Sequence record: LC494302.1
Reading direction: 5' to 3' (one strand)
DNA length: 64,000 nucleotides
Source: Escherichia phage SP27
Part shown: positions 2 to 49,373 of the stretch, piece after piece
How the letters are laid out: the number at the start of each line of letters is the position of its first letter
Numbering within the stretch: position 1 is the first letter of the stretch
The notes under the pieces: model-generated
Database searches by the model: none
Told to the model about the DNA's origin: nothing
Seen by the model: only the letters and a program-made list of their open reading frames with translations
Position numbers and translations under genes: made by a program

Positions 2-361
2 TGCATTACATTAAAAACACCTGTTAGTATTGTAATTAAAAAAAATAAAGATGATGAATTGACATTATCTATTGGTCGTGATAAAATCATTTTAAGTAAT
101 TTGTCTGAAGAAGAATTCTTTCAAAGAAGTACTATTATCGATATGAAAGATTTCACATATGAATCATTGGTTGAACTCAATACACGTTTTAACGATATTC
201 AGGAACGATTGCGACCAATTCTTCGTATCGAAGAAGAAGCCTGGATTGAAAGTATTAGGAAGATGCAAGAAATGTTGAAAGAAAATATTAACAATCTGGG
301 TAAAGCTACAATGGAATTTGGTAAAACTTTTAAACTGAACTTTTCAAAGGATCGTAAATGA
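2..361 (+). CDS. FQxST-motif family protein, 5' end cut by window edge
   Basis: Frame open from nt 2; motif SEEEFFQRSTII shared with paralogs; ATGA overlap with next gene. Confidence 0.6.
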   Translation, partial: CITLKTPVSIVIKKNKDDELTLSIGRDKIILSNLSEEEFFQRSTIIDMKDFTYESLVELNTRFNDIQERLRPILRIEEEAWIESIRKMQEMLKENINNLGKATMEFGKTFKLNFSKDRK

Positions 362-813
362 AAATTGATAATTTGATTCATGTTTTAGGATCTTTACATA
401 AAATATTATCACATCTACATGAGATAAAGAAACTGGGATTTAACATCTCAAATTCAATTGAAACTACATTTAAATATCAATCAATTACTGGTGATGGTTA
501 TTACATAATCGAATATACTTATGAAACCGATCCAGACTTCTATCCTCTTACGTTGAGAATTTATCCAACAAATCCGAGAGGAATTCACGACATATCATCA
601 ATTTCACTTGATCCAGATGGTGAAACGAGTATTGAATACAATAATGATTCAAAACCAGAATTTTACATTGATGATATTAAAATGATGTTCAACGATGAAT
701 ATGTTTTCCAACAAAGTACTGTGCATGATGTTGGAAGTACTAATGGACAATTTTGGAATACATGTTATTATCATATGATTGAAATTTGTAAATTATTAAA
801 AGGCGATGATTAA
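358..813 (+). CDS. FQxST-motif family protein
   Basis: 151-aa ORF, ATGA coupling; C-terminal NDEYVFQQSTVHD motif. Confidence 0.7.
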   Translation: MKIDNLIHVLGSLHKILSHLHEIKKLGFNISNSIETTFKYQSITGDGYYIIEYTYETDPDFYPLTLRIYPTNPRGIHDISSISLDPDGETSIEYNNDSKPEFYIDDIKMMFNDEYVFQQSTVHDVGSTNGQFWNTCYYHMIEICKLLKGDD

Positions 814-1196
814 TGAAATACAGCATTGAAGTACATTACACTACAGGGGACACTGAAACTGAAGATTCAGTTACCAATACATTGGATGTTCAATGGGAAT
901 CAAAGGATGAGGCAGTTGTAGCATTACAGTCTTTGAAAGAGCATTGGGTATTCTTTAAGAAACTCGATGATGCATATAGTAACGAACGTGCGACAATAAT
1001 CGATGAAGCCAAACATAAAGAATGGTTTGATCCAATGTCATGTGAATTCTCTTTCTTTGTAAAAATTGGAGATGAAAAAATTCCAGTACGTACACCGTGG
1101 AACGGCTACTTTGAAACTCTTCATAATGCACGAGTTGTCGCTGTTGATAATCCTGAACAAATCGATTTCGATTCATTGGACTGGAAAAAACTATGA
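813..1196 (+). CDS. hypothetical protein
   Basis: 127-aa ORF, TAATG coupling to upstream gene. Confidence 0.65.
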   Translation: MKYSIEVHYTTGDTETEDSVTNTLDVQWESKDEAVVALQSLKEHWVFFKKLDDAYSNERATIIDEAKHKEWFDPMSCEFSFFVKIGDEKIPVRTPWNGYFETLHNARVVAVDNPEQIDFDSLDWKKL

Positions 1197-1636
1197 CAGT
1201 ACTGCACCAATTGAAGAAGGTTAAGCATCCAGTTGTATATGAGGACTGGAAACGTCAGAAGCTGATGGGTGATTTTTATTTCCCAAAATCTAAAGTACTA
1301 GCAACGTCAAAAGCTATATACTTGAAATATAAGGATGAAGATTGTTTGTGTATTCAAATGGGATTCCATCCTAAAGTTGGTTTGTTTACAACAAATCAAA
1401 CATTTTATAAATTTAGAATTCAAAAAGATACATTTAGTATTCATATCGAAAAGCATGATGTACAAGATACAATTTATCGTGTGGAAAGTGAGCCTTTGAA
1501 TCTTGTTGAGATTCCGTACAATAATTTAGAAGAAATGTACTTTCAGCAGTTGACAATACAAGAAGACTTTGGTATGATAGGACTTCAAGAGTTAGAGATG
1601 ATTAAACAAATTCGTGATATCTACTTTAAGGAGTAA
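1193..1636 (+). CDS. FQxST-motif family protein
   Basis: 147-aa ORF, ATGA coupling; motif LEEMYFQQLTIQED. Confidence 0.7.
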   Translation: MTVLHQLKKVKHPVVYEDWKRQKLMGDFYFPKSKVLATSKAIYLKYKDEDCLCIQMGFHPKVGLFTTNQTFYKFRIQKDTFSIHIEKHDVQDTIYRVESEPLNLVEIPYNNLEEMYFQQLTIQEDFGMIGLQELEMIKQIRDIYFKE

Positions 1637-1638
1637 CT

Positions 1639-1782
1639 ATGCCAGTACGTAACAGTACTTCACGCTTTACGCTTCAACAGAAAGCAGATCTTTTGAATAT
1701 GGCAAACAAAGATTCTAATTTTCACTATCTAGTACTCGGTGGTTCAGTTGAAAAGATTGACCTACGTGAGTGTATGAAATAA
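1639..1782 (+). CDS. small hypothetical protein (47 aa)
   Basis: ATG 5 nt after AAGGAG; fills gap not covered by the 60-aa ORF track. Confidence 0.5.
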   Translation: MPVRNSTSRFTLQQKADLLNMANKDSNFHYLVLGGSVEKIDLRECMK

Positions 1783-1796
1783 CAAAAGGGGCTAAA

Positions 1797-1967
1797 ATGA
1801 GTTTACGTGAATCATGGGAACAATTTAAAGAAGAGATTGGTTATCGTGGTGTTAAGATTGAACCAATCAATCGTACTGAAAGCATCAAAGCTAGTACTAA
1901 TGGTACTACCTATGATCGTTATGATGAAAAGTATGGTTTACATTCTAAACCAAAGGATACTGAGTAA
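1797..1967 (+). CDS. small hypothetical protein (56 aa)
   Basis: Internal ATG of tracked ORF 1770..1967, preceded by AAGGGG. Confidence 0.5.
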   Translation: MSLRESWEQFKEEIGYRGVKIEPINRTESIKASTNGTTYDRYDEKYGLHSKPKDTE

Positions 1968-2110
1968 TGGTGTATACTAATATTTTTACTGGTATTATGC
2001 GTAAATTTATTAATGGTACTGGATACGTATCTAATGACAACGGTAGTACATGGGTAAAAAATAATACGTCTGAATCTTTAGTAAAAAGTCTTCCGTATTA
2101 TAAAGCTTGA
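1967..2110 (+). CDS. small hypothetical protein (47 aa)
   Basis: TAATG coupling; own translation MVYTNIFTGIMRKF...; below track threshold. Confidence 0.45.
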   Translation: MVYTNIFTGIMRKFINGTGYVSNDNGSTWVKNNTSESLVKSLPYYKA

Positions 2111-2135
2111 CACATGAAAATGGAGTATGTATAAT
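2107..2135 (+). promoter_or_regulatory. sigma70-like early promoter
   Basis: TTGACA-17 nt-TATAAT, 33 nt upstream of gene 2168. Confidence 0.6.
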
Positions 2136-6015: not shown

Positions 6016-6408
6016 ATGACTGAATCAGAACTACACGAAATGATAGATTTCATTTATGAAATGGTACAAGATAAAAATAACATCAATACAATTGCATCAG
6101 GCCCAAGACAAATTGGTAACCAAATAACATATTCTTTGTCCTTATGGTTACACCCGTGCATTAAGGTTGATTGTTTGTATTTCCGTCCTGATATTGATGC
6201 TTATTATTTTGTCAATCATGATGCATTAATGAAACCACATAATCGTCCAGTTGATGATACCTTTGTGACACACCCATTTTACCTGGCTGATTCCGAAGAA
6301 GATGAGTTTCAAAAGAACACAACGTTAAGCCCAGGTGAAATTTGCATCCCTTACGTACTTAAAGATAAAATGAATCACATCACAGAAGTTATGAAAACAT
6401 GCTGGTAG
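6016..6408 (+). CDS. FQxST-family protein (divergent)
   Basis: 130 aa; motif DSEEDEFQKNTTLS about 35 aa from C-terminus. Confidence 0.65.
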   Translation: MTESELHEMIDFIYEMVQDKNNINTIASGPRQIGNQITYSLSLWLHPCIKVDCLYFRPDIDAYYFVNHDALMKPHNRPVDDTFVTHPFYLADSEEDEFQKNTTLSPGEICIPYVLKDKMNHITEVMKTCW

Positions 6409-6456
6409 ATGCAATGAAACTCTGATATAATACAAATAATGATAATAAGAGGATAT

Positions 6457-6675
6457 ATGAAATTTATTGATTTTGATATTTCTAAGGCCAAAGAATTATT
6501 TGTAAGAAATGAAGTTTATGATATCATGTTACATAACGGCACTGTACAAGAAGATGTTGTGTTGTTTTCGTTTGATGGTGAAAATCTCGAAACTATATAT
6601 AAATTCAGCAACTTAGATGGTGACTTTTGGGAAACCAGTGCTGTTAAAATGTATAGAATTAAAAAGGAGCATTAA
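6457..6675 (+). CDS. hypothetical protein
   Basis: Tracked ORF trimmed to ATG 6457 behind AAGAGGA; extended -10 TGATATAAT at 6423-6431. Confidence 0.55.
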   Translation: MKFIDFDISKAKELFVRNEVYDIMLHNGTVQEDVVLFSFDGENLETIYKFSNLDGDFWETSAVKMYRIKKEH

Positions 6676-6676
6676 C

Positions 6677-7165
6677 ATGCCAATTCGTGGTGTACCAGAA
6701 CCATTAATGGAAGTTATTAAGCATGTTCGCATTGGAGATCGAGAAGTTAATCTTCGCCGTAATAACATTTATTACTTTAAAACTTCAGAAATGAGTTCTG
6801 TACAGATTGTCATTGGTACATCTATTAAGATTACTCGTGTACTTGATGGTAGTACTGATTTCGTTGAATATAATGTACTTACTAACAAAGTAATACACAC
6901 ATATAAATGGAGTGGGTATAAAACTATTAAGTATGAGTTTGATGTTGCTAGAACTGAAGAAGAACGATTTATGTTAAGTACTATCAATCCAGCAAACTAC
7001 CCTGACCTTGATACATTTTTGCTAATTTTAAAACTGTATAATGAAGCAAATGGGAAAGCGAAGGAGTATGATAGAATTATGTATGAACGCAAAAAAGAAC
7101 GTGCTCAGAAAAGTTATGATCTTTATGATAACCCATATGTAAAATATAATAAGGGGAGAAAATGA
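6677..7165 (+). CDS. hypothetical protein
   Basis: Tracked ORF trimmed to ATG 6677 behind AAGGAG. Confidence 0.65.
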   Translation: MPIRGVPEPLMEVIKHVRIGDREVNLRRNNIYYFKTSEMSSVQIVIGTSIKITRVLDGSTDFVEYNVLTNKVIHTYKWSGYKTIKYEFDVARTEEERFMLSTINPANYPDLDTFLLILKLYNEANGKAKEYDRIMYERKKERAQKSYDLYDNPYVKYNKGRK

Positions 7166-7566
7166 ATAACGAAGTTCAAATTATCATAACTCCACCTATA
7201 CAAAGTCTTGATGTATCTATTAGTGATTTTTTAGAAAAATATTATGAATGGTTTAATAATGATAATACCATTTATAATCATTCATTACCAGATGGTTTCG
7301 TGGAGCTTATCGAATTAAATTCAAAATCACTATACTTCTGTGTTGAATACAATGATTATATGACAGATGAAGATTATCGCTTTCGTTGTACATTGTATCC
7401 GAATTATTTTTCAATAGGTTATAAAGATTACCAGTACTGTACCACTAACTATAGTGTTGAGGAAGAATTTCAGTACAATTTACTTTATCCTGATTTAGAT
7501 TATACGATTGCAGTACTGTTGACTAAAATCATGGATTTTTATAAAGATAAATATAATGCAGCCTAA
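7162..7566 (+). CDS. FQxST-family protein (divergent)
   Basis: 134 aa, ATGA coupling; motif SVEEEFQYNLLYPD. Confidence 0.65.
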   Translation: MNNEVQIIITPPIQSLDVSISDFLEKYYEWFNNDNTIYNHSLPDGFVELIELNSKSLYFCVEYNDYMTDEDYRFRCTLYPNYFSIGYKDYQYCTTNYSVEEEFQYNLLYPDLDYTIAVLLTKIMDFYKDKYNAA

Positions 7567-7741
7567 GACATTTGATGAGTGGTTTAATCTACACTATAAT
7601 ATAAATGCAGCAGATATATACTATTTTAAGCTTGAATTGTATATATCATTGCGTAACCCAATTGAGTACTATAACAACATTATCAATTGTGATGATTTTG
7701 GTACATATTTTAGTATAGCCGTTATGGATATTAAGAGATGA
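7556..7741 (+). CDS. hypothetical protein
   Basis: 61-aa ORF overlapping neighbours by a few nt. Confidence 0.5.
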   Translation: MQPKTFDEWFNLHYNINAADIYYFKLELYISLRNPIEYYNNIINCDDFGTYFSIAVMDIKR

Positions 7742-7917
7742 CACATGAAGAATGGATGGCAATGATGAAAAAACGTTATGACCAGTTTGGAAATGGATTT
7801 ATTGATGGTCATTTCGATATTTTACGAGACAAATATAAGTTCGAATCATATGTACTAGATGAGAATGGAAATCGTTGGTTCATCTATGAGCTTGCGGTTA
7901 GAGACAAAAAAATATAA
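7738..7917 (+). CDS. MTHEEW-family small protein (59 aa)
   Basis: Own translation MTHEEWMAMMKKRYDQFGNGF...WFIYELAVRDKKI; paralog of 7996, 8515, 9503, 9664. Confidence 0.6.
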   Translation: MTHEEWMAMMKKRYDQFGNGFIDGHFDILRDKYKFESYVLDENGNRWFIYELAVRDKKI

Positions 7918-7919
7918 TA

Positions 7920-7995
7920 ACCTTTTCCATTGTCCATTGCAATGCTTTCTTTACAGAAGAATAAATGAAACACTTAATTGAACTGGATACATAAA
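7920..7995 (+). pseudogene. remnant of a paralog of gene 8298..8513 (3' end only)
   Basis: Aligns to the last ~70 nt of 8298..8513 but has an in-frame TAA and no 5' part. Confidence 0.45.
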
Positions 7996-8172
7996 ATGAC
8001 ACATGAAGAATGGATAGAGTCACTAAAATATAAACATGATCATTTTGGATTTGGTATACGCCAAGGCCATTATGATGTTTTGAACGATAAAAAAACGTTC
8101 GAATCATTGGTTTTGGACGAAGATTCCAACCACTGGTTCATCTACGAGCTTGCTATTAGAGATAAAAAATAG
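7996..8172 (+). CDS. MTHEEW-family small protein
   Basis: Tracked ORF trimmed to MTHEEWIESL...; start context conserved with 8515. Confidence 0.65.
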   Translation: MTHEEWIESLKYKHDHFGFGIRQGHYDVLNDKKTFESLVLDEDSNHWFIYELAIRDKK

Positions 8173-8177
8173 TAAGA

Positions 8178-8513
<336 letters not shown>

Positions 8514-8514
8514 A

Positions 8515-8697
8515 ATGACACACGAAGAATGGATGTCCAAACAGCATAAAGAACATGACTGCTTTGGGAATGGCATTCGTCAGGTACATTATGATATATT
8601 AAGAGATGAAAATCTTTTCAGGTCATATGTTTTGGATACCAGAAAACCCTGGTTTATATGCGAACTGGCATTTAGAAAGTCAAATAATCAAAACTAA
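8515..8697 (+). CDS. MTHEEW-family small protein
   Basis: Tracked ORF trimmed to MTHEEWMSKQ... Confidence 0.65.
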   Translation: MTHEEWMSKQHKEHDCFGNGIRQVHYDILRDENLFRSYVLDTRKPWFICELAFRKSNNQN

Positions 8698-9258: not shown

Positions 9259-9262
9259 ATAA

Positions 9263-40607: not shown

Positions 40608-40949
40608 ATGATTTATTACACTAACATGTTTGCCTATGCTGTTGCTTGCATTTACATTGTTTACTTCTTATTTGGTGGAGTACTGTGCTTCTTTAAGTAC
40701 AAAACGTTGTTCAACCGAATGTACCCAAATCATCCAATTGTAGTTGTACTTTTGATTCTTTCAGTTTCTCAAATAATCGTTGAAACTACAATGGGTATCA
40801 GTAGTGTACATTATAGTTTTGGTACTATAGTAATTATTACTATGCTTATTGCATACATTTTAGTACTTGGATATGGTATCTTTGGTAATATTGGTATGAA
40901 AATGTATCATCGAATTAAAACATTACGTGATAATCTACCGGAGCGTTGA
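40608..40949 (+). CDS. small multi-pass membrane protein, same family (member 2)
   Basis: ATG 40608 behind AAGGAT; C-terminus RDNLPER. Confidence 0.7.
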   Translation: MIYYTNMFAYAVACIYIVYFLFGGVLCFFKYKTLFNRMYPNHPIVVVLLILSVSQIIVETTMGISSVHYSFGTIVIITMLIAYILVLGYGIFGNIGMKMYHRIKTLRDNLPER

Positions 40950-40950
40950 T

Positions 40951-41295
40951 ATGTATAATTTGAACCTAATCTCATATATTATAACAACACTGTTTACATT
41001 CTATGCCTTTGTTGGTATAATCCTACTGTACTTTAAATTTTATAAAGTGTTTAACCGTTTCTATCCTTCAATGGAGAATGAGTTTTTCTTTGTGTTGTAC
41101 GTATGTTACACATTCATGGCTACATGTTTCACTGTAGTCGATGGTGTCATCGGCATTAAAACTGCTGCACCAAATGGTAGTACGCTGGTTGCATTTATTC
41201 TTACCGGATTCCTTGCAACTTATATTGCCTTCATTGCAACATGGTCAGTGGTTGAATTTCTCTTGCGACTACGAAAGAATATGCCGAATCGATAG
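40951..41295 (+). CDS. small multi-pass membrane protein, same family (member 3)
   Basis: ATG 40951 behind GGAG; C-terminus RKNMPNR. Confidence 0.7.
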   Translation: MYNLNLISYIITTLFTFYAFVGIILLYFKFYKVFNRFYPSMENEFFFVLYVCYTFMATCFTVVDGVIGIKTAAPNGSTLVAFILTGFLATYIAFIATWSVVEFLLRLRKNMPNR

Positions 41296-41304
41296 GAGAC
41301 ATAT

Positions 41305-41559
41305 ATGTTTGCATTGCGTAACAAAAACACTAAAGAAATATTATGTTTAGATACCGTATGGGATTGTGCGGGATCAACTACAGTTCTTGAAGAAGGAACT
41401 GGATATTGCGTGTTTGTTGTACATGATAGGAATGAACTCGAATTATTACTTGCTGAGTTCAATGCTGGTGGTAATCCTAACAGTACTGAATACCCTGAGA
41501 TTATCAATCCAGCACCACCAGGCTCTTATGAAATTCTACAACTGTGGGAGTTGAAGTAA
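41305..41559 (+). CDS. hypothetical protein (paralog of 43431)
   Basis: 84 aa, AGGAGA SD; MFALRNKN.. versus MYALYNKE.. Confidence 0.6.
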   Translation: MFALRNKNTKEILCLDTVWDCAGSTTVLEEGTGYCVFVVHDRNELELLLAEFNAGGNPNSTEYPEIINPAPPGSYEILQLWELK

Positions 41560-41939
41560 TGCGTCAAATGCACAAAGTAACCGAGCTAAACAAGCGTCTG
41601 GTTAAACAATCAATGTTCGAGGATAAAGAGTCTTATTATAACTTTAAACGTGCAGTAGAGGCTGCTATCCACATTCAGAAGCTTAAAGAACGTGGTTGTA
41701 TTATTCTGGAAAATGGTTCGGAAGTTGTAACGGATGACTTTAGTGTAGCGTTTGATGTTTCACCTGACGGGACGCTATCAATGCCCCGCTTAGGAACTGG
41801 AAACATGACTGTTTGGGTTGGCTTCACTATGGGGAATGTACCTGGTACTGTGTACGTAGATGATGCGGAATTGAAAGACAGTTTCAAAAACTTATCGTAC
41901 CTTGAACCACAATACGCACATGAAATGAATTTATTTTGA
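41559..41939 (+). CDS. hypothetical protein
   Basis: Trimmed to ATG 41559 (TAATG coupling, GGGAG SD). Confidence 0.6.
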   Translation: MRQMHKVTELNKRLVKQSMFEDKESYYNFKRAVEAAIHIQKLKERGCIILENGSEVVTDDFSVAFDVSPDGTLSMPRLGTGNMTVWVGFTMGNVPGTVYVDDAELKDSFKNLSYLEPQYAHEMNLF

Positions 41940-41940
41940 G

Positions 41941-41998
41941 TTGACAAACACATTCAGTACTGTATAATGTTTATCAAGGGGATGAACTTCTCATCCCC
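41941..41998 (+). promoter_or_regulatory. early promoter with CAGTACTG dyad followed by stem-loop
   Basis: TTGACA-aacacatTCAGTACTG-TATAAT, then GGGGATGA-ACTTC-TCATCCCC. Confidence 0.6.
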
Positions 41999-42015
41999 AC
42001 AATCGAGGAATTGTC

Positions 42016-42570
42016 ATGATTACTTTTAAGAAAACTGCTAACCACATCCATGAAATCTACATTAACGGTCACAAAGCTGGCCTTCTTCGTTTACTCGCCC
42101 ATCACCCTGATGCTACCGTATCTGATAATGAACCTAAAGATTGGCGTGTCTTTTTCTTTGGAAAGTACAGTGATTTTCAAGTATCAAACCTGAAGAACAT
42201 TCGTTCAGTATGCACGTTAACTGAAATTAAAGAAAAGTTAGCACAAGCATTGAAAACTAATCCAGATGGTGTTCTTCCACCTGATAACTTTGTAGAGAAA
42301 GGTTATGCCTTAGCTCATTTCAAAGATGGTACTATTCAATCTATCAGTACTGAATATGAATATCATTGGACTGAGTACTTCACTTATGGTTCGAGTAATA
42401 CATTGATGGATTCACGTAGTAAATTGGAAGAAGTACTGACTCGTATGAATGAACGCGAGCGTCAGTTATATGACAAACCAGAAATGTGGAGTTCAACTTA
42501 CATTGACCGTATTGACTATGTTATTATGACTCCAATCTTTGACACTGCTTACTATGATTCTTTGAAATAA
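42016..42570 (+). CDS. hypothetical protein
   Basis: 184 aa, GAGGAA SD. Confidence 0.65.
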   Translation: MITFKKTANHIHEIYINGHKAGLLRLLAHHPDATVSDNEPKDWRVFFFGKYSDFQVSNLKNIRSVCTLTEIKEKLAQALKTNPDGVLPPDNFVEKGYALAHFKDGTIQSISTEYEYHWTEYFTYGSSNTLMDSRSKLEEVLTRMNERERQLYDKPEMWSSTYIDRIDYVIMTPIFDTAYYDSLK

Positions 42571-42581
42571 GGATAACTTAT

Positions 42582-42758
42582 ATGAAACTACGTACTCGTA
42601 ATCGACTGATGGATGCACTGTACCATGAACAGCTTTCACTGAATGAAGTGAAGCGTCAGTTAATGTACACATATCAGTTTCCCGCTCGCATTGCAAAACA
42701 ACGTGCTAAAGAATTGCTGAAAGAAGCAATAGAGTACTGGGAATCTGATTCGTACTAA
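42582..42758 (+). CDS. 58-aa helical basic protein (possible DNA binder)
   Basis: AAGGATA SD; own translation MKLRTRNRLMDALYHEQLSLNEVKRQL...; function speculative. Confidence 0.5.
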   Translation: MKLRTRNRLMDALYHEQLSLNEVKRQLMYTYQFPARIAKQRAKELLKEAIEYWESDSY

Positions 42759-42797
42759 TATTACGTGATATGTCACGTTAATTAAGTGAGGCGATAA

Positions 42798-43049
42798 ATG
42801 AAAATATTATTAGTTCTAATACTACTAATAGTTTTACCATTTACTTTAGTATCCCCTGGACTTGCATGGAATGTATTTGTGTACTTAGTATGTACTATTG
42901 TAGTAAATGGTATCTTGTTCTTAGTTCTATTCATAAATGGAATAGGACACGGTGGAGGATGGACCAGTACTGCTGATATCGTACATAAAACCACTATGTC
43001 TTTATTTGTAATGTGGAATTTGTTCTGGACTTGGTTTGTGTTCTTCTAA
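42798..43049 (+). CDS. small membrane protein
   Basis: 83 aa, 3 TM helices, GTGAGG SD. Confidence 0.6.
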   Translation: MKILLVLILLIVLPFTLVSPGLAWNVFVYLVCTIVVNGILFLVLFINGIGHGGGWTSTADIVHKTTMSLFVMWNLFWTWFVFF

Positions 43050-43057
43050 TTAAAAAT

Positions 43058-43429
43058 ATGAATATAGATTTGAAAGGTGCAACCCGAACTGTTATCCTCA
43101 TTGGGGAATACGCTATCAAGATTCCAACCTTCAAAAGCTGGAAGTTATTCCTAACTGGAATGATAGCTAACCTCAATGAACGTTCATGGATGCAGTACTC
43201 CAATCGTAGTGATAGTGGTATCTGCCCTACTTTGTGGTCATCATGTACAGGACTAGTAACTGTACAGAAACGTTGTAAGCCAGTTCAACATAGGGGTTTA
43301 TTTTGGGTGGAGTTGTGTGCTTTAGCATTGAATTCAGAGTTAAGTACTGACTTCTTTTATTCAGATGCGAAGCCAGAAAACTTTGGTTATCTGAATGGTA
43401 AGTTAGTTAAACTTGATTATGGAGATTAA
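43058..43429 (+). CDS. minimal protein-kinase-like protein (123 aa)
   Basis: Trimmed to ATG 43058; YAIKIP lysine, catalytic DAKPENFG, DYG (DFG-like) at extreme C-terminus. Confidence 0.6.
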   Translation: MNIDLKGATRTVILIGEYAIKIPTFKSWKLFLTGMIANLNERSWMQYSNRSDSGICPTLWSSCTGLVTVQKRCKPVQHRGLFWVELCALALNSELSTDFFYSDAKPENFGYLNGKLVKLDYGD

Positions 43430-43430
43430 G

Positions 43431-43700
43431 ATGTACGCACTGTATAATAAAGAAAAGAAACGATTTGCTAAGGTTGAAATTTCGATTGATACCTTTGATA
43501 TGTTGGAGTACTGTATTGTGACGGACCTATATGCTAACTTGTATTACGTTCTTGATGACGTATCAGTACTGCAACGATTGCTTGAGAATTCCAAAAGTCA
43601 ATGCCAGGGCATCCATGATGGTTCATCTTATGAAACACCTGAGTGTTCCTACGGCTATCTGGACGGGTATGAGATTGTGAAGTTGGGGATTGTTGAATAA
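43431..43700 (+). CDS. hypothetical protein (paralog of 41305)
   Basis: Trimmed to ATG 43431 behind TGGAGA. Confidence 0.55.
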   Translation: MYALYNKEKKRFAKVEISIDTFDMLEYCIVTDLYANLYYVLDDVSVLQRLLENSKSQCQGIHDGSSYETPECSYGYLDGYEIVKLGIVE

Positions 43701-43706
43701 AGAAAA

Positions 43707-43739
43707 GGGTTGACTACGGTCAGCCCTTTTTGCTATAAT
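43707..43739 (+). promoter_or_regulatory. fused terminator/early-promoter cassette
   Basis: GGGTTGAC-TACG-GTCAGCCC, T5, TATAAT 18 nt after TTGACT. Confidence 0.7.
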
Positions 43740-43767
43740 CATTTCATCGAAACGAGAGGATGAATAC

Positions 43768-44283
43768 ATGACACGCATTAACTTAGTACACGTTAAAGAA
43801 CTTGCTGACCAACATCTGATGGCTGAATATCGTGAACTCCCACGTGTATTTGGTGCTGTACAAAAACACGTTCAAGCACGTAAGCGTGTACGTGATTTCA
43901 AAATTAACAGTACTTATCTGTTAGGTTCAGGTCATGTGACATTCTTTTACGACAAGTTGCTGTACTTACAGAAGCGTCATATCGATATTGTTAACGAATG
44001 TTTGCGTCGTGGTATGAAGATTCAAAACACTGAAGTAAACGACATTAGCGGCTTCCCTGCTGAGTTTTGTAATGACTACGTACCAACGGAGTCAGAGATT
44101 AAAATGTCTCGTGATCGTTTGATTGAGAAGCTCCAGATGAAGCCTACGTGGTATAAGTTTACTGATGTTGAATGTCCACAGTACGTTAAAGATATGCAGA
44201 ACGTAAGTAGTAAGAACGAATCTAGTACTGATATGTTCGACGAAATTGAAGAACAAATCAAAGATGAAATGAATAATTATTAA
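43768..44283 (+). CDS. denV: pyrimidine dimer DNA glycosylase (T4 endonuclease V homolog)
   Basis: [30 protein letters not shown]...KRVRDFKI...[10 protein letters not shown] nearly identical to my recollection of T4 EndoV; extra acidic ~35-aa tail. Confidence 0.93.
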
Positions 44284-44289
44284 AGGAAA

Positions 44290-44310
44290 GGGTTGACTTC
44301 GGTTACACAA
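44290..44310 (+). promoter_or_regulatory. degenerate copy of the hairpin/promoter cassette
   Basis: GGGTTGACTTCGGTTAC: left arm and loop kept, right arm and T-run lost. Confidence 0.35.
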
Positions 44311-44321
44311 AGGAACATAAC

Positions 44322-44516
44322 ATGTTATTAGTATATTCAACGCGTTTCTGGATTTCTTTTATTGTACTATCGCTAATCGGCTTCGGTTTGAGTATACTCT
44401 TTTCGTGGGATGAATTGGGTACATGGTATTATGAAGTCCCGTGGTACATGAAGATAGCTCCTTGTTATGCGGCATTGTTCGTGTCATTCCTTATTGTTGT
44501 CTTCAGCGAGGATTAG
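44322..44516 (+). CDS. small membrane protein
   Basis: 64 aa; PWYMKI segment resembles 46911 member (PWYMKV). Confidence 0.55.
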   Translation: MLLVYSTRFWISFIVLSLIGFGLSILFSWDELGTWYYEVPWYMKIAPCYAALFVSFLIVVFSED

Positions 44517-44567
44517 TTGATGTAGTATGTGCTACACCAAAGTATTTGGATATTTTAGATATAAACA

Positions 44568-44596
44568 TTGACACCTGTTATATCTTTCTGTATTAT
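44568..44596 (+). promoter_or_regulatory. sigma70-like early promoter
   Basis: TTGACA-17 nt-TATTAT. Confidence 0.6.
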
Positions 44597-44622
44597 GTAC
44601 ATCACCAAATGAGGAATACAAC

Positions 44623-44982
44623 ATGGCATCTTTAAGTGAAATCGCAGAATACAACCCACTAACAATCTCAACAATTCAACGTACAAAAACTTTTTATTTC
44701 CGTCCTGCTGATGGATGGAAACGTGGAATGAATGGTGACTATCGAGTACTGGAAGATTCACTAATCGAGCGTATCAACTCTGAACTACAGAAGTATGAAG
44801 GTGTTAAAGTTGTGCGTTCAACTTCTCGTTATTTTGAGTACTACATTGAGTCTTCAACTGTAAATGAAAACTCATCATTATCGGTGGACAACACTGATAT
44901 TCTTCGTAATGCAGTTGGTATGTTATGCAACATTGCAGAAGAAATGGGATTAACTATTAGTACTATGAGTGAGTTGGAATAA
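44623..44982 (+). CDS. hypothetical protein
   Basis: 119 aa, GAGGAA SD. Confidence 0.65.
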   Translation: MASLSEIAEYNPLTISTIQRTKTFYFRPADGWKRGMNGDYRVLEDSLIERINSELQKYEGVKVVRSTSRYFEYYIESSTVNENSSLSVDNTDILRNAVGMLCNIAEEMGLTISTMSELE

Positions 44983-44988
44983 CATAAA

Positions 44989-45021
44989 GGGTTGACTTCG
45001 GTCAGCCCTTTTTGCTATAAT
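44989..45021 (+). promoter_or_regulatory. fused terminator/early-promoter cassette
   Basis: GGGTTGAC-TTCG-GTCAGCCC, T5, TATAAT; almost identical to 43707 copy. Confidence 0.7.
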
Positions 45022-45049
45022 TATTTCATCAACTGAAGAGGGTAAAGAA

Positions 45050-45820
45050 ATGACCAGAGAAGCACGCAGCATTCAAATTCAGAAAAACTTCAACTCCATG
45101 ATGGTTGCTCTTGAGTGTTTGCTCGATGATAGCAGTACTGTAAAAAGTATGGTTGTCAGTGGTGCTCCTGGTGTTGGTAAGACTTACACCTTGTCCCAAC
45201 GTCTCCAGAAGGCTCATGACGCAGCAGAATGGAACGTAGCTACTATCAGTGGTAAGATGACTACACTGGCTCTGTACGAAGTTCTGTACAAGAATCGTCA
45301 CAGCACCAACGTGTTAGTACTGGATGATATGGACAGCATCTTTGATTCTGAAGACGGTATGAACCTGCTCAAAGCTGTTTTGGATAGTGGTAAGCGTACT
45401 GTATCTTATATGACTAGCTCTAAGTACTTGAGCACTAACGGCATTCCTAATAGCTTTGATTTTAATGGTCGCATCGTATTCATTACTAACAAAGATTTAG
45501 CGTTAGATGCTAAAGCTAAAACTAAAATGTCTGCTCATTATGCTGCTCTTATGTCTCGTTCTGTGTACGTGGATTTACAGATTCAGACTAAAAGTGATAT
45601 CATGATTCATATTGAAAATGTAATGACTAAGACTAATATCCTTGCATCTAAAGGTGTTAACAGTAACGGTAGTAAAGCAATTCTGAACTGGATGTTAAAA
45701 CATGAAGATAATCTTCGTGCACCATCCCTGCGTATGCCTTTGTTGATTTCAGCAGTATATAACAACAATCCGTATGATTGGGAAGAACAATGTGAAAACT
45801 TGTTCCTTGAGAAAATCTAA
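45050..45820 (+). CDS. P-loop AAA-type ATPase
   Basis: Walker A GAPGVGKT, Walker B VLVLDDMD; 256 aa. Confidence 0.8.
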   Translation: MTREARSIQIQKNFNSMMVALECLLDDSSTVKSMVVSGAPGVGKTYTLSQRLQKAHDAAEWNVATISGKMTTLALYEVLYKNRHSTNVLVLDDMDSIFDSEDGMNLLKAVLDSGKRTVSYMTSSKYLSTNGIPNSFDFNGRIVFITNKDLALDAKAKTKMSAHYAALMSRSVYVDLQIQTKSDIMIHIENVMTKTNILASKGVNSNGSKAILNWMLKHEDNLRAPSLRMPLLISAVYNNNPYDWEEQCENLFLEKI

Positions 45821-45829
45821 TTACATATG

Positions 45830-45858
45830 TTGACAGTACTACCATAGTGTAGTACTAT
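45830..45858 (+). promoter_or_regulatory. promoter with two AGTACT boxes
   Basis: TTGACA-GTACTaccatagtgtAG-TACTAT. Confidence 0.55.
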
Positions 45859-45887
45859 AACTTAATATTCACCACCGGAGATACGAT

Positions 45888-46229
45888 ATGCTTGAGTTTT
45901 TTAATTCAGATACAATGCTTGGTATCACGCTAATTTACATGTTTGTATTCTTGTTTTATCATTCAATTGTAATTAGTCTTTGGTATTTTAAAAGGAAAGT
46001 TGTTTTTAAATTGTATTCGTATGATAATGTACTCTTAGTAGTATATAGCATTATACAAGGTGGGTTTATTTTATTTGGTGTGATGACATATGTGATTTAC
46101 ATGTTACAAATTGATAATACACCACACATTACACAATATGTTGTGTTTTCAGGACTAATCGTCTGGTTATTGGTGTGTACTCTGTATTTTATTATTAAAG
46201 CTCGTGATAACTTTAAATGGGGATTCTAA
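45888..46229 (+). CDS. small multi-pass membrane protein, TM family (member 4)
   Basis: 113 aa; MLEFFNSDTM.. start near-identical to next gene; WYFKRK after TM1. Confidence 0.7.
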   Translation: MLEFFNSDTMLGITLIYMFVFLFYHSIVISLWYFKRKVVFKLYSYDNVLLVVYSIIQGGFILFGVMTYVIYMLQIDNTPHITQYVVFSGLIVWLLVCTLYFIIKARDNFKWGF

Positions 46230-46567
46230 TGTTAGAATTTTTTAAATCAGATACAATGATTAGTATTACTTTGATTTATCTGTTTGGTTTTTTCTTTTAT
46301 CATGCACTAGTTGTAGTACTATGGTATTTTAAAAAGAAAATTGTTTTTAAACTGTATCCAGTGAGGAATTCATCACTAGTTCTTTACACACTTGTTCAAG
46401 GTTTGTTTGCAATTGTTGGTCTTATGGCACACTTAATTTATTGTGCCAATCCTCACTTGAACTCAATCTCACAATATATTGTATTCTTTGGGTTGTTCAT
46501 TTGGTTAGTTGTATACTTAATCCATCTCATTATTCATGGTAGAGATAAAATTCGCGGAGACTTCTAA
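46229..46567 (+). CDS. small multi-pass membrane protein, TM family (member 5)
   Basis: TAATG coupling; MLEFFKSDTM... Confidence 0.7.
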   Translation: MLEFFKSDTMISITLIYLFGFFFYHALVVVLWYFKKKIVFKLYPVRNSSLVLYTLVQGLFAIVGLMAHLIYCANPHLNSISQYIVFFGLFIWLVVYLIHLIIHGRDKIRGDF

Positions 46568-46914
46568 TGTTTGAAGCTTATCTTGAGTTTTTAAGGAGTA
46601 GTCCAGTTGCACATTCACTTGCAGGGATTATTCTAACAACTTATGTATCATTTTGGGTAGTTATGTTTCTAGGATGGTATTTTAAACGACAATTCTATAA
46701 ACGTAATGGTGAAGATTTTATGAATTCTGTCATTAATCAATCGTTGTTTGCATCAACATTGATTGCATGTATTGTAGCAACACTCACAGGAAAGGTACTA
46801 CCAGCTTTTTCCGCAGTTTACGGCACACTTGGGATGATATGTTTAACTTTTATATTGACCATTAAAATTTGTTGTGTTATGATTGAACTTCGAAATAAGA
46901 TACCGGAGGAATGA
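46567..46914 (+). CDS. small multi-pass membrane protein, TM family (member 6)
   Basis: TAATG coupling; C-terminus LRNKIPEE links both arrays. Confidence 0.7.
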   Translation: MFEAYLEFLRSSPVAHSLAGIILTTYVSFWVVMFLGWYFKRQFYKRNGEDFMNSVINQSLFASTLIACIVATLTGKVLPAFSAVYGTLGMICLTFILTIKICCVMIELRNKIPEE

Positions 46915-47249
46915 TGGAGTACTTTATTGATTTACTGCCGTGGTATATGAAAGTTAGTACCATGTACTATATTATTAGTGCTGGATTCTACTTTCTGATG
47001 TGGTTCTTTAAACGACCAATTTCAGTATTCATCGCTGATAACATGTTGCAATTAAAATTACACGCATGGTTTGGTATGGCGATGATTATGCCTATTATTC
47101 ACTACTCAATGATTAGTAGAGGTTTCCGTTCTAATGGTGAACCAATTGTATTAGTATTCTATTGGGGTTCAACTATTGCATATGTAAGTTTGTTGTTGTT
47201 CCCAGTCGTTCATAAGTTACGTGCTAAAGTTCCTGATGCGAGGTACTAA
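46911..47249 (+). CDS. small multi-pass membrane protein, TM family (member 7)
   Basis: ATGA coupling; C-terminus LRAKVPDARY. Confidence 0.7.
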   Translation: MMEYFIDLLPWYMKVSTMYYIISAGFYFLMWFFKRPISVFIADNMLQLKLHAWFGMAMIMPIIHYSMISRGFRSNGEPIVLVFYWGSTIAYVSLLLFPVVHKLRAKVPDARY

Positions 47250-47563
47250 TGGATATAGTAACATTGATTTACACGTTGTATTCATTCTATTTCATTATGT
47301 GTTGGGTTGGATTTTTATTTGTACTCAAGATGTTTGATTATGTTGAAAAACAGATAAAAGAATTTTGTATTCCTTTTATCGGTTCAACCATTATTAGTGT
47401 TTCTTGTGTGTATTTTTTGGTTTTTGATCCACCAGATAACACTGCAATGATTGACTTGATGTTACTACCAACAACTGTTACTTTTTTATGTAGTCTGATG
47501 CCGCCGATTAGCCGTGGACTAACAGAATTTAGACGCAATCAAAAGCGTAAACGAGGGATGTAA
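47249..47563 (+). CDS. small multi-pass membrane protein, TM family (member 8)
   Basis: TAATG coupling; basic tail RRNQKRKRGM. Confidence 0.65.
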   Translation: MDIVTLIYTLYSFYFIMCWVGFLFVLKMFDYVEKQIKEFCIPFIGSTIISVSCVYFLVFDPPDNTAMIDLMLLPTTVTFLCSLMPPISRGLTEFRRNQKRKRGM

Positions 47564-47931
47564 TGGAAATTGCTCTTATTATCTTAACTGCTATGCTGTT
47601 TATTAGTACTGTGGTTATAATTGGTAAATTCTTTTGTGTATCATTTTTAGAAACGGTATACGATGAAATTGCTGATGATTATGAATTACAAGCCGGATTT
47701 TTCATTACGTATTGGCTTAGTTTATTTTGTCTAGTCATTGCTTGGATTTTACATATCTTTAAATGGGGTATGGTAGACGGTGATCCTATTATGGCAATTA
47801 TTGTTCTAGTGTTTGGTATCCTTGGTGGTGCAGTGCATAATCTAATGGTTATCTGGCAAACTGTTCAATATGTTTTGGTTCCCTATTTCGAAAAGATGCA
47901 CAGTACAATTAAAAAACGTAAACGAGGTTAG
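47563..47931 (+). CDS. small multi-pass membrane protein, TM family (member 9)
   Basis: TAATG coupling; basic tail KKRKRG. Confidence 0.65.
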   Translation: MEIALIILTAMLFISTVVIIGKFFCVSFLETVYDEIADDYELQAGFFITYWLSLFCLVIAWILHIFKWGMVDGDPIMAIIVLVFGILGGAVHNLMVIWQTVQYVLVPYFEKMHSTIKKRKRG

Positions 47932-47932
47932 T

Positions 47933-48295
47933 ATGAACGGGATAGAATTATCTTTCGTTGGTCAATTACTAGTAATGGCGTATACATTTATCTTCTCACT
48001 GAATGCATTCGTGTGCATTGGGAAGTACTTCCATAAGCGACCATTATCAAATATATATGATGTAATCCAAAAGAGATATAGTCCAGCATATACTGTGTTG
48101 GGTACAGTATTCAATTTTGGTTTTATTGTATTAATAATTGGACTGTTCACATCCTCTTTGAATACAATAACCTTCGGTCTTATGATATGTTCATTGGTAT
48201 TAGCCGTAATTATATGTTGTTTAGTACTGCACCTTGTGGTACTATTGTATATAAAGATCTCTGAAATCCACCAACGTTTGGGTATGAGGAAATAA
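47933..48295 (+). CDS. small multi-pass membrane protein, TM family (member 10)
   Basis: Trimmed to ATG 47933 behind GAGG. Confidence 0.65.
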   Translation: MNGIELSFVGQLLVMAYTFIFSLNAFVCIGKYFHKRPLSNIYDVIQKRYSPAYTVLGTVFNFGFIVLIIGLFTSSLNTITFGLMICSLVLAVIICCLVLHLVVLLYIKISEIHQRLGMRK

Positions 48296-48296
48296 T

Positions 48297-48668
48297 ATGA
48301 GTTACCGTGAGATATTTTCCATTATTTCAATTATTATGTTCAGTACTGGAACACTGGTATGGTTATTATACTTCTTCTGTATTAATCCAGTGTATAATAT
48401 GTTATGTAATATTAAATCAAGTGCCGGATATATCACTTTTATGGTCTTTATGGGATATTATTGTCTAAGCATTTTAGGTGTTGTTTTGGTTGTTATATTT
48501 GATGTGGGACCAAATAGTGATGGTATGGAAATACATGAATTAATAACCATGTTTGGATGTATGATACCAACAGCACTACTGTTTGTAGCTACTGGTAGTG
48601 GATTGATAAAATTATATAATTATTTAAAATCCATTCATAATTCCATTCATAATAAGCGTATGTCATAA
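48297..48668 (+). CDS. small multi-pass membrane protein, TM family (member 11)
   Basis: 123 aa, AGGAAA SD. Confidence 0.65.
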   Translation: MSYREIFSIISIIMFSTGTLVWLLYFFCINPVYNMLCNIKSSAGYITFMVFMGYYCLSILGVVLVVIFDVGPNSDGMEIHELITMFGCMIPTALLFVATGSGLIKLYNYLKSIHNSIHNKRMS

Positions 48669-48675
48669 TAAAAAA

Positions 48676-48697
48676 TCCAGTACTATTAAGTACTGGA
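48676..48697 (-). terminator. hairpin acting as minus-strand terminator (A6 on plus = T6 on minus)
   Basis: TCCAGTACT-ATTA-AGTACTGGA; T-run only on minus-strand side. Confidence 0.45.
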
Positions 48698-48710
48698 TGT
48701 ATAAGGAGTT

Positions 48711-49373
48711 ATGATGAAATCAAAATTAGGTTTGTTTTATAAAAACTATTTTGTTAAACAACGTAAATTTATAAAAAAATATTTCTCTGGCGAGAAGTCT
48801 AGTCCTATAATCTTTAAAAGACCAAGTTATAATACTTACTTAGCTGGTGCTAAACAGTCTAAGAAATTTATTACTCTTTTACATAAAAACAAAATTAAAG
48901 CTTCTTATGTTGAAACGAGAAGAAACTCATCAATAACTCCTGGTGATTTTATTGAGTACGGATGTTTCAATATTAAGTACAATGATAATACATACTTTAT
49001 GGATATTGATTGTAATACATCCAATCTTTTTAACATTGTAGTAAATCCATTAAAACAATATAATGTTTATGGTGATTCTATTATCAAATTAATCAAAAAC
49101 AAAGATAGCTTTGATTTTGAAATAAATGTTTTAGATGATAATTTTGACGAAGTACCAGTAAACCCTGAAATCTGTGATATTTTAAACAGTTTAAAAGGTA
49201 GTACCTACACTATATCATCTGATTTAATGTTTCAGTACTCATTAATCCATAAAGATATTGAAAAGTATATTGAATGCTCCAGAATTTTGAATTTTCTCTA
49301 TGATGAATTTAAAAAGAGTTCTAAAATAACTGCATACACTTTGTACAATATTCCTAAAATGGTGAATCTTTAA
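48711..49373 (+). CDS. FQxST-motif family protein
   Basis: 220 aa, AAGGAG SD; motif SSDLMFQYSLIHKD; last plus-strand gene. Confidence 0.65.
   Translation: MMKSKLGLFYKNYFVKQRKFIKKYFSGEKSSPIIFKRPSYNTYLAGAKQSKKFITLLHKNKIKASYVETRRNSSITPGDFIEYGCFNIKYNDNTYFMDIDCNTSNLFNIVVNPLKQYNVYGDSIIKLIKNKDSFDFEINVLDDNFDEVPVNPEICDILNSLKGSTYTISSDLMFQYSLIHKDIEKYIECSRILNFLYDEFKKSSKITAYTLYNIPKMVNL

Follow-up and report, generated by a model that had tools for sequence, protein, structure and literature searches.

T7 Ocr and T4 Arn exemplify the early inhibitors and DNA mimics of phages, which are small and acidic, and the multigene accessory families of large viruses are multicopy, fast evolving, and variable in copy number. 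The recognition sites of the TEV NIa and picornaviral 3C proteases read E-x-x-Y-x-Q↓G/S and Q↓G, respectively; the T4 gp21-like prohead protease cleaves after Glu. A helix N-capping box with an acidic first turn is a general protein structure motif. The window, i.e., the whole 64,000-nucleotide stretch of Escherichia phage SP27 that was analyzed (LC494302.1; an E. coli jumbo phage of the PBECO4/121Q type, 97 to 98% identical to the Asteriusvirus phages PBECO4 and slurp01), contains a family of small proteins, most of them acidic, that has been duplicated many times, as evident from motif and HMM tests. These proteins resemble the Ocr- and Arn-type inhibitors in being small, acidic, nonenzymatic-looking, and probably early, and the accessory families in being multicopy, fast evolving, and of a copy number that varies between related phages; no sequence or fold similarity to Ocr, Arn, or accessory multigene families was found. 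Their signature, TEExFFQxST, most likely marks a structural helix buried in the domain and not a protease cutting site.

The initial annotation had proposed a family of at least 16 paralogs and listed 15 ORFs. All of these are present on the + strand and carry the motif, and a sixteenth was added (6617-7165, TEEERFMLST). The strict pattern [DE][DE]x[FYLVHMER]F[QM]x[STNC][TLIVM] occurs 10 times in the 141 nonoverlapping ORFs of the window, compared with a mean of 0.02 by chance (1000 residue shuffles; maximum of 1 per shuffle). In a leave-one-out test with an HMM of the 42-aa block, 14 of the 16 candidate members were recovered above all other ORFs (E 3e-7 to 3.5e-3), the exceptions being ORF 48711, which was marginal (E 0.045), and ORF 10709, which failed (E 0.22). 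An iterated HMM showed 11 + strand ORFs (2, 358, 1193, 6617, 9898, 12659, 13077, 14153, 14583, 14947, and 29509) to be homologous over a domain of about 100 residues, whereas for ORFs 6016, 7162, 10709, 35041, and 48711 both the iterated HMM and hhalign gave matches of 17 to 26 residues confined to the motif. A large family defined by its signature is thus real, but whole-domain homology is demonstrable for 11 members only. Two further descriptions needed correction: the motif, said to lie 35 to 45 residues from the C terminus, has its Gln at 29 to 36 residues in 11 of the 16 members and at 39 to 79 in the other five, and the marked acidity ascribed to many members applies to 11 of 16 with a pI below 5 (28% among other window ORFs), but not to the remaining five.

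The 11 full-domain members are robust. The window edge cuts the family array and truncates ORF 2-361 (+ strand, as are all ORFs below) at its 5′ end; its motif (SEEEFFQRSTIID, 104-142) is followed by an unusually long C-terminal tail. It is the ortholog of PBECO4 gp414 (171 aa, full-length copy; iterated HMM E 2.9e-12, leave-one-out E 2.5e-5), and upstream PBECO4 carries, besides gp414, seven members within gp419-gp426. ORF 358-813 (151 aa, pI 4.8; NDEYVFQQSTVHD at 691-729; iterated HMM E 3.9e-10) belongs to phrog_21500, to which PHROGs assigns no function, and keeps the motif in orthologs at 55 to 99% identity. ORF 1193-1636 (147 aa; LEEMYFQQLTIQE at 1526-1564) was matched by the A3 subfamily HMM (E 1.9e-4, profile positions 55-123) and the iterated HMM (E 8.6e-22). 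ORF 6617-7165, the one absent from the initial list, encodes 182 aa with a basic C-terminal tail and has Met instead of Gln in its motif (TEEERFMLSTINP, 6953-6991; iterated HMM E 3.2e-20, leave-one-out E 2.3e-5). ORF 9898-10251 (117 aa, pI 4.4; TEEEYFQMSTVQE at 10144-10182) matched the full profile of the iterated HMM (E 1.8e-23), and the promoter scan placed a σ70-like promoter with 11/12 matches at 9839-9866. ORF 12659-13084 (141 aa, pI 4.2; phrog_17453; TEEKFFQYCLLND at 12956-12994), whose orthologs have an acidic loop of variable length directly before the motif, and ORF 14583-14999 (138 aa; DSEMFFQLSTVYD at 14880-14918; iterated HMM E 1.3e-25) are related to ORF 13077-13442 by BLASTP (E 9e-12 and 7e-6, respectively); the latter ORF encodes 121 aa with the motif TEESLFQYSMIND at residues 86-98 (13332-13370). 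ORF 14153-14581 (142 aa from GTG 14153 or 139 aa from ATG 14162; TEEMYLQLNFVHD at 14456-14494) gave E values of 4e-39 (A3 HMM) and 2.9e-22 (iterated HMM). ORF 14947-15393 (148 aa, or 133 aa from ATG 14992; TEEEHFMESTVQE at 15280-15318; iterated HMM E 4.1e-18) again has Met for Gln, as do six of the six orthologs read (P0015 to P0022: FM[DA]ST). ORF 29509-30027 (172 aa; TEENVFQQSLIHN at 29860-29898; iterated HMM E 7.7e-12) lies outside the main arrays, and its syntenic JNE01 ortholog was recruited too.

Among the motif-only ORFs, three are probable members. ORF 6016-6408 (130 aa, pI 4.8; SEEDEFQKNTTLS at 6292-6330) gave E 2.1e-3 with the leave-one-out block HMM, E 0.17 with the full-domain HMM, and an hhalign match of 25 columns only (probability 0.7%). 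For ORF 7162-7566 (134 aa, pI 4.1; SVEEEFQYNLLYP at 7453-7491; leave-one-out E 5.7e-4), the hhalign match was confined to the motif, and the JNE01 ortholog was recruited by the iterated family HMM (E 0.007). ORF 35041-35637 (198 aa, or 190 aa from ATG 35065; NDEEYFQESIVTE at 35500-35538) is basic (pI 9.1), with a Lys-rich N-terminal extension; its leave-one-out E value was 1.2e-3, its iterated HMM score borderline (E 0.008), and its hhalign match limited to the motif. The remaining two are possible members: ORF 10709-11098 (129 aa; degenerate motif DEADEFQKRTVYE at 10979-11017; hhalign probability 0.6%), whose 73%-identical JNE01 ortholog (FQKST) was recruited by the iterated HMM (E 4.7e-4), and ORF 48711-49373 (220 aa, pI 9.2, basic; iterated HMM E 0.45; hhalign 18 columns, probability 5.6%), whose motif (SSDLMFQYSLIHK, 49215-49253) lacks the acidic cap and is invariant in six orthologs.

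An exhaustive search of 1.84 billion protein representatives matched only 75 clusters. Those sampled traced to short contigs or to jumbo phages with genomes near 350 kb; all but two of the 75 measured 87 to 176 aa, the outliers being a 249-aa protein and a 5608-aa protein with 20 matched stretches. No Pfam domain was found in the 66 new small cluster representatives, and the family, which had not been recognized from the sequence, indeed has no relative in Pfam, NCBIfam, PADLOC, or PDB. In PHROGs it is split over at least 22 groups, none with an assigned function (including phrog_17453, 21500, 23719, 24027, 34619, 28118, 24941, and 24510); each window member matches its own PHROG (E 1e-58 to 1e-133) and cross-matches others over the motif region. 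These groups are the same proteins as the window family, and no database unites them in a single family or mentions the signature. The family is found in jumbo phages of Enterobacterales with genomes of about 350 kb, namely Asteriusvirus and Alcyoneusvirus. For RaK2, an HMM trained on the window only detected at least 13 ORFs with the motif within 40 kb, and the iterated HMM recruited 15; ten of the 15 coincide with an annotated CDS, all "hypothetical protein," and neither of the "virion structural protein" CDSs in the same stretch (ORF182 and ORF233) is a family member. JNE01 has 16 members in 40 kb. By sequence the family also occurs in Salmonella SE_PL/Munch and Erwinia Hallingskeid; uncharacterized proteins of Pectobacterium CBB and Yersinia fHe-Yen9-04 match by predicted fold only. 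The motif is kept in orthologs and in other genera; a lack of conservation in orthologs had been named as counterevidence.

The family genes are surrounded by tRNA genes and by small ORFs of early type. A promoter scan gave 11 σ70 consensus matches of at least 11/12, and early expression of the family genes is plausible because all 11 of these best matches lie on the coding strand; at a loose threshold, matches were not enriched (76 versus 88 in shuffles). Identity to JNE01 orthologs was lower for members than for neighbors (median, 42% versus 57%; p = 0.02). Compared with PBECO4, pN/pS was 0.38 for members and 0.15 for neighbors, an excess of amino acid changes that comprises only about 30 substitutions; as the member value is below 1, it does not demonstrate positive selection.

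AlphaFold2 models, likewise suggested at the outset, were produced for two members, of which ORF 13077-13442 (51-sequence alignment) gave a confident model (pLDDT 89.3, pTM 0.84) and ORF 7162-7566 one of low confidence (pLDDT 48.7). The former features helices at residues 4-15, 87-96, and 104-114 and strands at 26-32, 44-51, 54-61, 64-68, and 76-79, so that the predicted domain starts with a helix, continues with an antiparallel sheet of five strands, and ends in a helix-turn-helix. The fold of p32/gC1qR/Mam33 (Pfam MAM33) was considered and rejected: five strands are present rather than seven, the match scored below many clearly unrelated ones, and there was no Pfam match. Motif residues 86-98 form the N-cap and the penultimate helix 87-96 (blockwise pLDDT 88-90), which at 3.19 bits per position is conserved more than any other element, whereas strands 4 and 5 and the adjoining loops are least conserved. 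In the logo of 93 unique sequences (T60, E81, E77, F90, Q82/M11, S77, D70), columns 12, 16, and 20 are variable, and conservation peaks at a helical periodicity of 105 degrees throughout the family. It is strongly indicated that T-E-E-x-[FYL]-F-[Q/M]-x-S-[TL]-[VIL]-x-D spans the penultimate helix from its N-cap through an acidic first turn into the helix body. The beginning resembles a capping box, with T, S, or D just before the predicted helix start (T86 in ORF 13077-13442) and then E-E-(E/S); such a box is generic and defines no family, but in these proteins it is followed directly by a helix body, F-Q-x-S-T-V-x-D, of unusual invariance. F, Q/M, T/L, and V/I probably lie on one contiguous face packing on the sheet, while positions i, i+4, and i+8 are free to vary and probably point into the solvent; that F, Q, S, and D are buried is deduced from helical geometry, with a confident model for one member. 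Given this shared face, the motif would be a fold-determining element inherited by all paralogs, without a processing role. Note that the conserved polar residues (E, E, Q, S, and D) are unusual in a purely structural helix and may leave room for a shared functional site.

These data bear directly on the suggestion that the motif is a 3C/TEV-type site, in which a Gln-specific protease would cut E-E-x-[FY]-F-Q and release a tail of roughly 30 residues. Most members do fit the TEV-type consensus E-x-x-Y-x-Q, with E at P6, an aromatic residue at P3, F at P2, and Q at P1, but the likeness is linear only: the motif is predicted to be helical within a compact, high-confidence domain, its conservation is helically periodic family-wide, P1 is Met in 11/93 sequences (12%), and conservation extends into the residues behind the motif, which belong to the same domain. 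Furthermore, P1′, directly behind the Gln, holds varied, bulky residues across the 93 sequences (Q, L, Y, or M, without G or S, the Ser being at P2′). The only protease mentioned in the RaK2 paper is a T4 gp21-like prohead protease. We know of no cognate 3C/TEV-like protease in this phage lineage. On the strength of the helix model, the helical periodicity, the Gln/Met exchange, and the bulky P1′, cleavage is unsupported and extremely unlikely, and the fold motif, the alternative named in the initial annotation, is supported.

Other functions can be imagined for so constant a helix. The C-terminal helix-turn-helix might be a docking module tethering all paralogs to one host or phage partner, which would make this an adaptor family, similar in logic to viral families that pair variable repeats with a conserved docking box at the C terminus. 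Many conserved residues are polar (E81, E77, Q82, S77, and D70 of 93), the conserved arc spans more than one helix face, and a variable N-terminal body is combined with a constant C-terminal module across genera. However, a motif helix wrapped by the sheet and by the two remaining helices should show this pattern as well, the Gln-to-Met exchange suggests packing more than hydrogen-bond recognition, and neither fusions nor a conserved neighboring partner gene were seen; we regard this reading, in which the docking surface would be in particular the polar E10/S17/D21 stripe of the logo plus the EE cap and the variable sheet would recruit different targets, as rather unlikely. It is improbable that the polar motif residues, joined in the 12659/13077/14153/14583 subfamily by the sheet residues N44 and D59, form a small-molecule, nucleotide, or metal pocket that sequesters signals or cofactors. 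While the 51-sequence alignment of this subfamily shows no variation at N44, D59, or Q92, and small, stand-alone, probably early proteins would suit such a sponge or sensor, N44 and D59 are not conserved family-wide, the Gln is replaceable by Met, and about 20 paralogs per genome are hard to reconcile with a single ligand; no structural similarity to known sponge or binding folds was found. That the proteins belong to the virion or its assembly, for instance as internal head proteins or assembly chaperones, and share a targeting element is very improbable, as the family ORFs are "hypothetical protein" in both RaK2 and PBECO4 next to neighbors called "virion structural protein," and the genes lie amid small early-type ORFs, tRNA genes, and σ70-like promoters.

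We therefore favor, as the probable reading, a lineage-specific tandem family of single-domain proteins that are built on the fold motif, made early, and bind host or defense targets. The host takeover or antidefense role proposed from the sequence is plausible in view of the coding-strand σ70 promoters, the acidity, the fast divergence, and the turnover in copy number. Tandem duplication would give rise to stand-alone, mostly acidic proteins of about 115 to 180 aa, synthesized early from host σ70-type promoters. Each paralog would act, probably stoichiometrically, by binding a different host or defense macromolecule through those strands and loops that vary, among them the variable acidic loop that precedes the motif, and the family would grow and turn over by tandem duplication and fast divergence. 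The conserved domain would thus serve as a scaffold on which early-made proteins contact host or defense targets via variable surfaces.

All 15 ORFs that the initial annotation listed as paralogs sharing a C-terminal motif exist in the window and carry the signature, for which TEExFFQxST serves as the consensus, and a sixteenth motif ORF was found at 6617-7165 (TEEERFMLST). The strict motif occurs 10 times in the 141 non-overlapping ORFs of the window, compared with a mean of 0.02 and a maximum of 1 in 1000 residue shuffles. Pairwise BLASTP comparisons linked only ORFs 12659, 13077, and 14583 (designated by their start coordinates; E values of 1e-11 to 1e-5) and ORFs 9898 and 14947 (E 2e-3), and the family is therefore very divergent. 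When an HMM of a 42-residue block was used in a leave-one-out analysis, 14 of the 16 members ranked above all other ORFs, with ORF 48711 being marginal and ORF 10709 failing. The 12659/13077/14153/14583 subfamily, together with its homologs in the databases (115 proteins; alignment A3), served to build a full-length HMM, which was then iterated against the ORFs in the window and in a locus of the jumbo phage RaK2. At convergence, it comprised 27 ORF entries and nothing else, i.e., 15 RaK2 ORFs and 11 distinct window members (ORFs 2, 358, 1193, 6617, 9898, 12659, 13077, 14153, 14583, 14947, and 29509), ORF 2-361 entering the count twice (also as 59-361); most entries covered the whole 101-position profile. 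ORF 35041 was borderline (E 0.008), and ORFs 6016, 7162, 10709, and 48711 of the window were not recruited. For these five ORFs, profile-profile comparison with the family (hhalign) paired the motif, over 17 to 26 residues, and nothing more, so that full-domain homology is unproven; the syntenic orthologs of ORFs 7162 and 10709 in the jumbo phage JNE01 were recruited by the family HMM. The HMM and profile-profile results thus define 11 robust members and five probable or possible ones. The motif chance test and the HMMs confirm that the family is real, and it proved larger than the at least 16 paralogs first stated.

The first 16 kb of the window are 97 to 98% identical to Asteriusvirus jumbo coliphages of ~350 kb (PBECO4, slurp01, BAU.Micro_ELP-22, and others); in the RefSeq annotation of PBECO4, all ORFs of this stretch are "hypothetical protein" except for one "membrane protein." The first member, which is cut by the window edge, is the ortholog of PBECO4 gp414, and seven further members lie directly upstream in PBECO4, within gp419-gp426 (NC_027364.1 222858-226583, L003 2559-6284, - strand in that locus), adjoining a DNA methyltransferase gene. 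A methyltransferase gene is embedded in the RaK2 array, too. Comparison of window positions 6439-7165 with PBECO4 L001 6456-7515 revealed a local rearrangement between near-identical phages: ORFs of 189 and 162 aa are annotated in PBECO4 where SP27 has a 78-aa ORF and a 182-aa member, and the N terminus of this family member therefore differs between the two. With an HMM trained on window sequences only, at least 13 ORFs with TEExYFQxSTxxD were found in the syntenic 40-kb stretch of Klebsiella phage RaK2, which belongs to a different genus from the window's phage, and 40 kb of JNE01 hold 16 members, including a run of seven where SP27 has five.

A word-indexed homolog search with a profile of 15 paralogs returned 22 matches, all from close Asteriusvirus relatives, and an exhaustive HMMER search through 1.84 billion representative proteins yielded only 75 clusters at E <= 1e-3. 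The proteins of 73 of these clusters measure 87 to 176 aa, the exceptions being one of 249 aa and one of 5608 aa; the latter, with 20 matched stretches, was taken as a false positive and left out of the set of 66 representatives. All 66 new small representatives possess the signature, positioned 27 to 50 residues from the C terminus in 64 of them and 65 and 101 residues from it in the other two. Ten clusters were sampled, of which four originate from contigs of ~350 to 360 kb, including JNE01 and Salmonella SE_PL/Munch, and six from contigs of 0.7 to 78 kb. Erwinia phage Hallingskeid was added as a source of relatives by tblastn, and a fold search added uncharacterized proteins of Pectobacterium CBB and Yersinia fHe-Yen9-04. 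Neither the 15 window members scanned nor the 66 remote representatives gave anything above noise in Pfam(-A), NCBIfam, or PADLOC, and no structure in the PDB matched significantly by sequence profile or by fold. In PHROGs, all ten window members scanned matched profiles over their full or nearly full length, and the 66 representatives fall in 22 PHROGs, all of "unknown function"; the family is thus scattered over at least 22 PHROGs. The family is not described in the searchable literature on Asteriusvirus, RaK2, PBECO4, Sharanji, and jumbo phages generally; the RaK2 paper states only that ~10% of the RaK2 gene products are paralogs. No relative with a known structure or function was detected for the family.

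AlphaFold2 was run for ORF 13077-13442 with an input of 51 sequences, giving a model with a pLDDT of 89.3 and a pTM of 0.84. The predicted elements are a helix (residues 4 to 15), five strands (26 to 32, 44 to 51, 54 to 61, 64 to 68, and 76 to 79), and two helices (87 to 96 and 104 to 114); for comparison, the MAM33/p32 fold consists of a helix, a 7-stranded sheet, and two helices. Helix 87 to 96 lies inside the compact domain with pLDDT values of 88 to 90, and the motif T86-E-E-S-L-F-Q-Y-S-M-I-N-D98 therefore comprises the N-cap residue and the penultimate helix. For ORF 7162, a motif-only member with only two close homologs, the pLDDT of the AlphaFold2 model was 48.7, too low to be informative. 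A logo, which does not depend on the model of ORF 13077-13442, was derived from 93 unique sequences, drawn from the remote representatives as well as from the window, PBECO4, and RaK2. In this logo, the motif is T/S/D (82), E (81), E (77), x, F/Y/L (F35, Y23, L15), F (90), Q (82) or M (11), x, S (77), T/L, V/I/L, x, D/E (82), and after it come a turn and then a second helix, also capped. The three free positions are spaced i, i+4, and i+8, and the conservation profile peaks at 105 degrees, i.e., a period of 3.4 residues, which is α-helical and not β. Both data sets agree with a helix N-capping box, with S, T, or D at the N-cap directly before the helix and acidic residues at N1 to N3: T86 directly precedes helix 87 to 96, T, S, or D occupies logo column 9 in 82/93 sequences, and columns 10 and 11 are E or D in 88/93, with E in only 36/93 at column 12. 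From helical-wheel geometry, we infer that F, Q/M, T/L, V/I, and the next L/F/I form one contiguous face, and the exchange of Gln for Met is consistent with a side chain that is buried and packs at this position. Within the subfamily alignment, conservation is highest in the signature helix (3.19 bits per position) and lowest in strands 4 and 5 with adjoining loops (~2.0 bits). The helix downstream of the motif is conserved as part of the domain. Orthologs of 12659-13084 (P0056, P0109, P0116, and P0123) carry an acidic low-complexity loop insert just before the signature helix, the length and sequence of which vary between phages (e.g., DNFNDNFNDNYYD, FEFDDEDEDGDGDDKS, and CDHEDYECDHEECECECEDDKS).

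These data bear on the initial suggestion that the motif might be a 3C/TEV-type cleavage site, with a docking or fold motif as the alternative. The linear resemblance stands, since the logo of the 93 sequences contains E-x-x-[YF]-x-Q at positions P6, P3, P2, and P1, but other features of such sites are absent. Specifically, P1 is Met instead of the strictly required Gln in 11/93 sequences, P1′ is not a small residue (G, S, or A) but Q (19), L (18), Y (16), M (12), E (6), or D (6), and the conserved Ser (77/93) sits at P2′ and not at P1′. Furthermore, the motif does not form an exposed, extended, or disordered linker; in the model, it forms a helix within a compact domain, and the tail freed by such a cleavage would be one of the domain's own conserved helices. 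Prohead proteases of the T4 gp21 type cut after Glu. A T4 gp21-like prohead protease is the sole protease mentioned in the RaK2 paper, and the sole protease entry in ~66 kb of PBECO4 annotation (stretches of 16 kb and 50 kb) is an "ATP-dependent protease." The cleavage site was rejected on account of the helix prediction, the helical periodicity of conservation, the Gln-to-Met exchange, and the bulky P1′ residues, and processing of the 3C/TEV type is unsupported. The helix prediction and the conservation period speak instead for the fold motif; a docking role shared by the family is conceivable for the conserved polar stripe of the signature helix. Treating the proteins as one family also removes the tempting but misleading idea of viral 3C/TEV-like processing in a phage, on which experiments would otherwise be wasted.

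Members lie in runs that resemble operons, in which stop and start codons overlap, surrounded by small ORFs and six tRNA genes. The G+C content of the window is ~33%, and the coding strand is + up to ~49.4 kb and - thereafter. One of these tRNA genes, at 11128-11219 (+), was called by ARAGORN as tRNA-Ser with the anticodon ACT. An A in position 34 is unusual in bacteria and phages, and the gene may encode a modified, inosine-type or aberrant tRNA, unless ARAGORN miscalled it. A second paralogous family of 54 to 66 aa is encoded on the + strand within 7738-9828 (7738-7917, 7978-8172, 8497-8697, 9503-9667, and 9664-9828), featuring MTHEEWM at the N terminus or a few residues after the listed TTG start and a C-terminal motif of the form "...W/PWF(I/F)xE(L/I)xxR..."; the one copy tested had no match in Pfam. 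The syntenic region of JNE01 includes a run of 54-aa (165-nt) ORFs, two of which are the best matches of window copies. About a dozen paralogous predicted multi-pass membrane proteins of 104 to 141 aa form a tandem array at 40260-48668 (+), many with C termini like R..(N/K)(I/M)P(E/N)(K/R), and the first of them had no Pfam match. At least 11 paralogs of 250 to 430 aa at 49850-63974 (-) share the N-terminal motif MLPF(A/G)RM(V/M)KYGNI(A/K)P; the one tested matches Pfam RCC1-like repeats, the Gly-rich 251-aa protein at 55978-56733 has the same N terminus without an RCC1 match, and as a guess these paralogs may be fiber or "hair" proteins. Recognizable genes among the unknowns (all +) encode a sigma-70-family factor with regions 2, 3, and 4 (23924-24889), a pyrimidine-dimer DNA glycosylase (Pfam Pyr_excise; 43768-44283), and a P-loop AAA/STAND-like NTPase (45050-45820). 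Small ORFs at 28052-28297, 28665-28940, 32067-32426, 32818-33192, 34836-35057, and 38784-39203 (+) begin like signal peptides or lipoproteins (MK... and a hydrophobic stretch followed by C or A), which suggests a set of putatively secreted or envelope-targeted proteins.

Sigma-70 consensus matches of at least 11/12 positions were all located on the coding strand (11/11), four of them being perfect. A pI below 5 was calculated for 11/16 members versus 28% of the other ORFs. The median identity to JNE01 orthologs is 42% for members versus 57% for neighbors (p = 0.02), and pN/pS against PBECO4 is 0.38 and 0.15, respectively; positive selection was dismissed, as the value for members, although above that of the neighbors, is below 1 and derives from few substitutions. 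By these comparisons, the members diverge faster than their neighbors and remain under purifying selection. The family displays no catalytic signatures or domain fusions, and RaK2 members coinciding with an annotated CDS are labeled "hypothetical protein" and not "virion structural protein." A conserved scaffold bearing variable surfaces accounts most economically for these features; the proteins would be made early and act by binding host or defense macromolecules, and the family would expand through tandem duplication. Tentatively, and with more doubt than confidence, the unrecognized fold may be imagined as a diversifying arsenal of ~20 paralogs per Rak2-like genome, each neutralizing a different host or defense protein, in which the invariant helix might also dock all of them to one partner as in an adaptor system.

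The proteins have so far been annotated merely as "hypothetical protein," although they account for roughly 3 to 4% of the genes of Rak2-like jumbo phages. Once grouped into a single family, they provide a sharp diagnostic signature, a fold model of high confidence that matches no solved structure, and a concrete, bounded set of candidates for host-takeover or anti-defense screens in coliphages under development for therapy.
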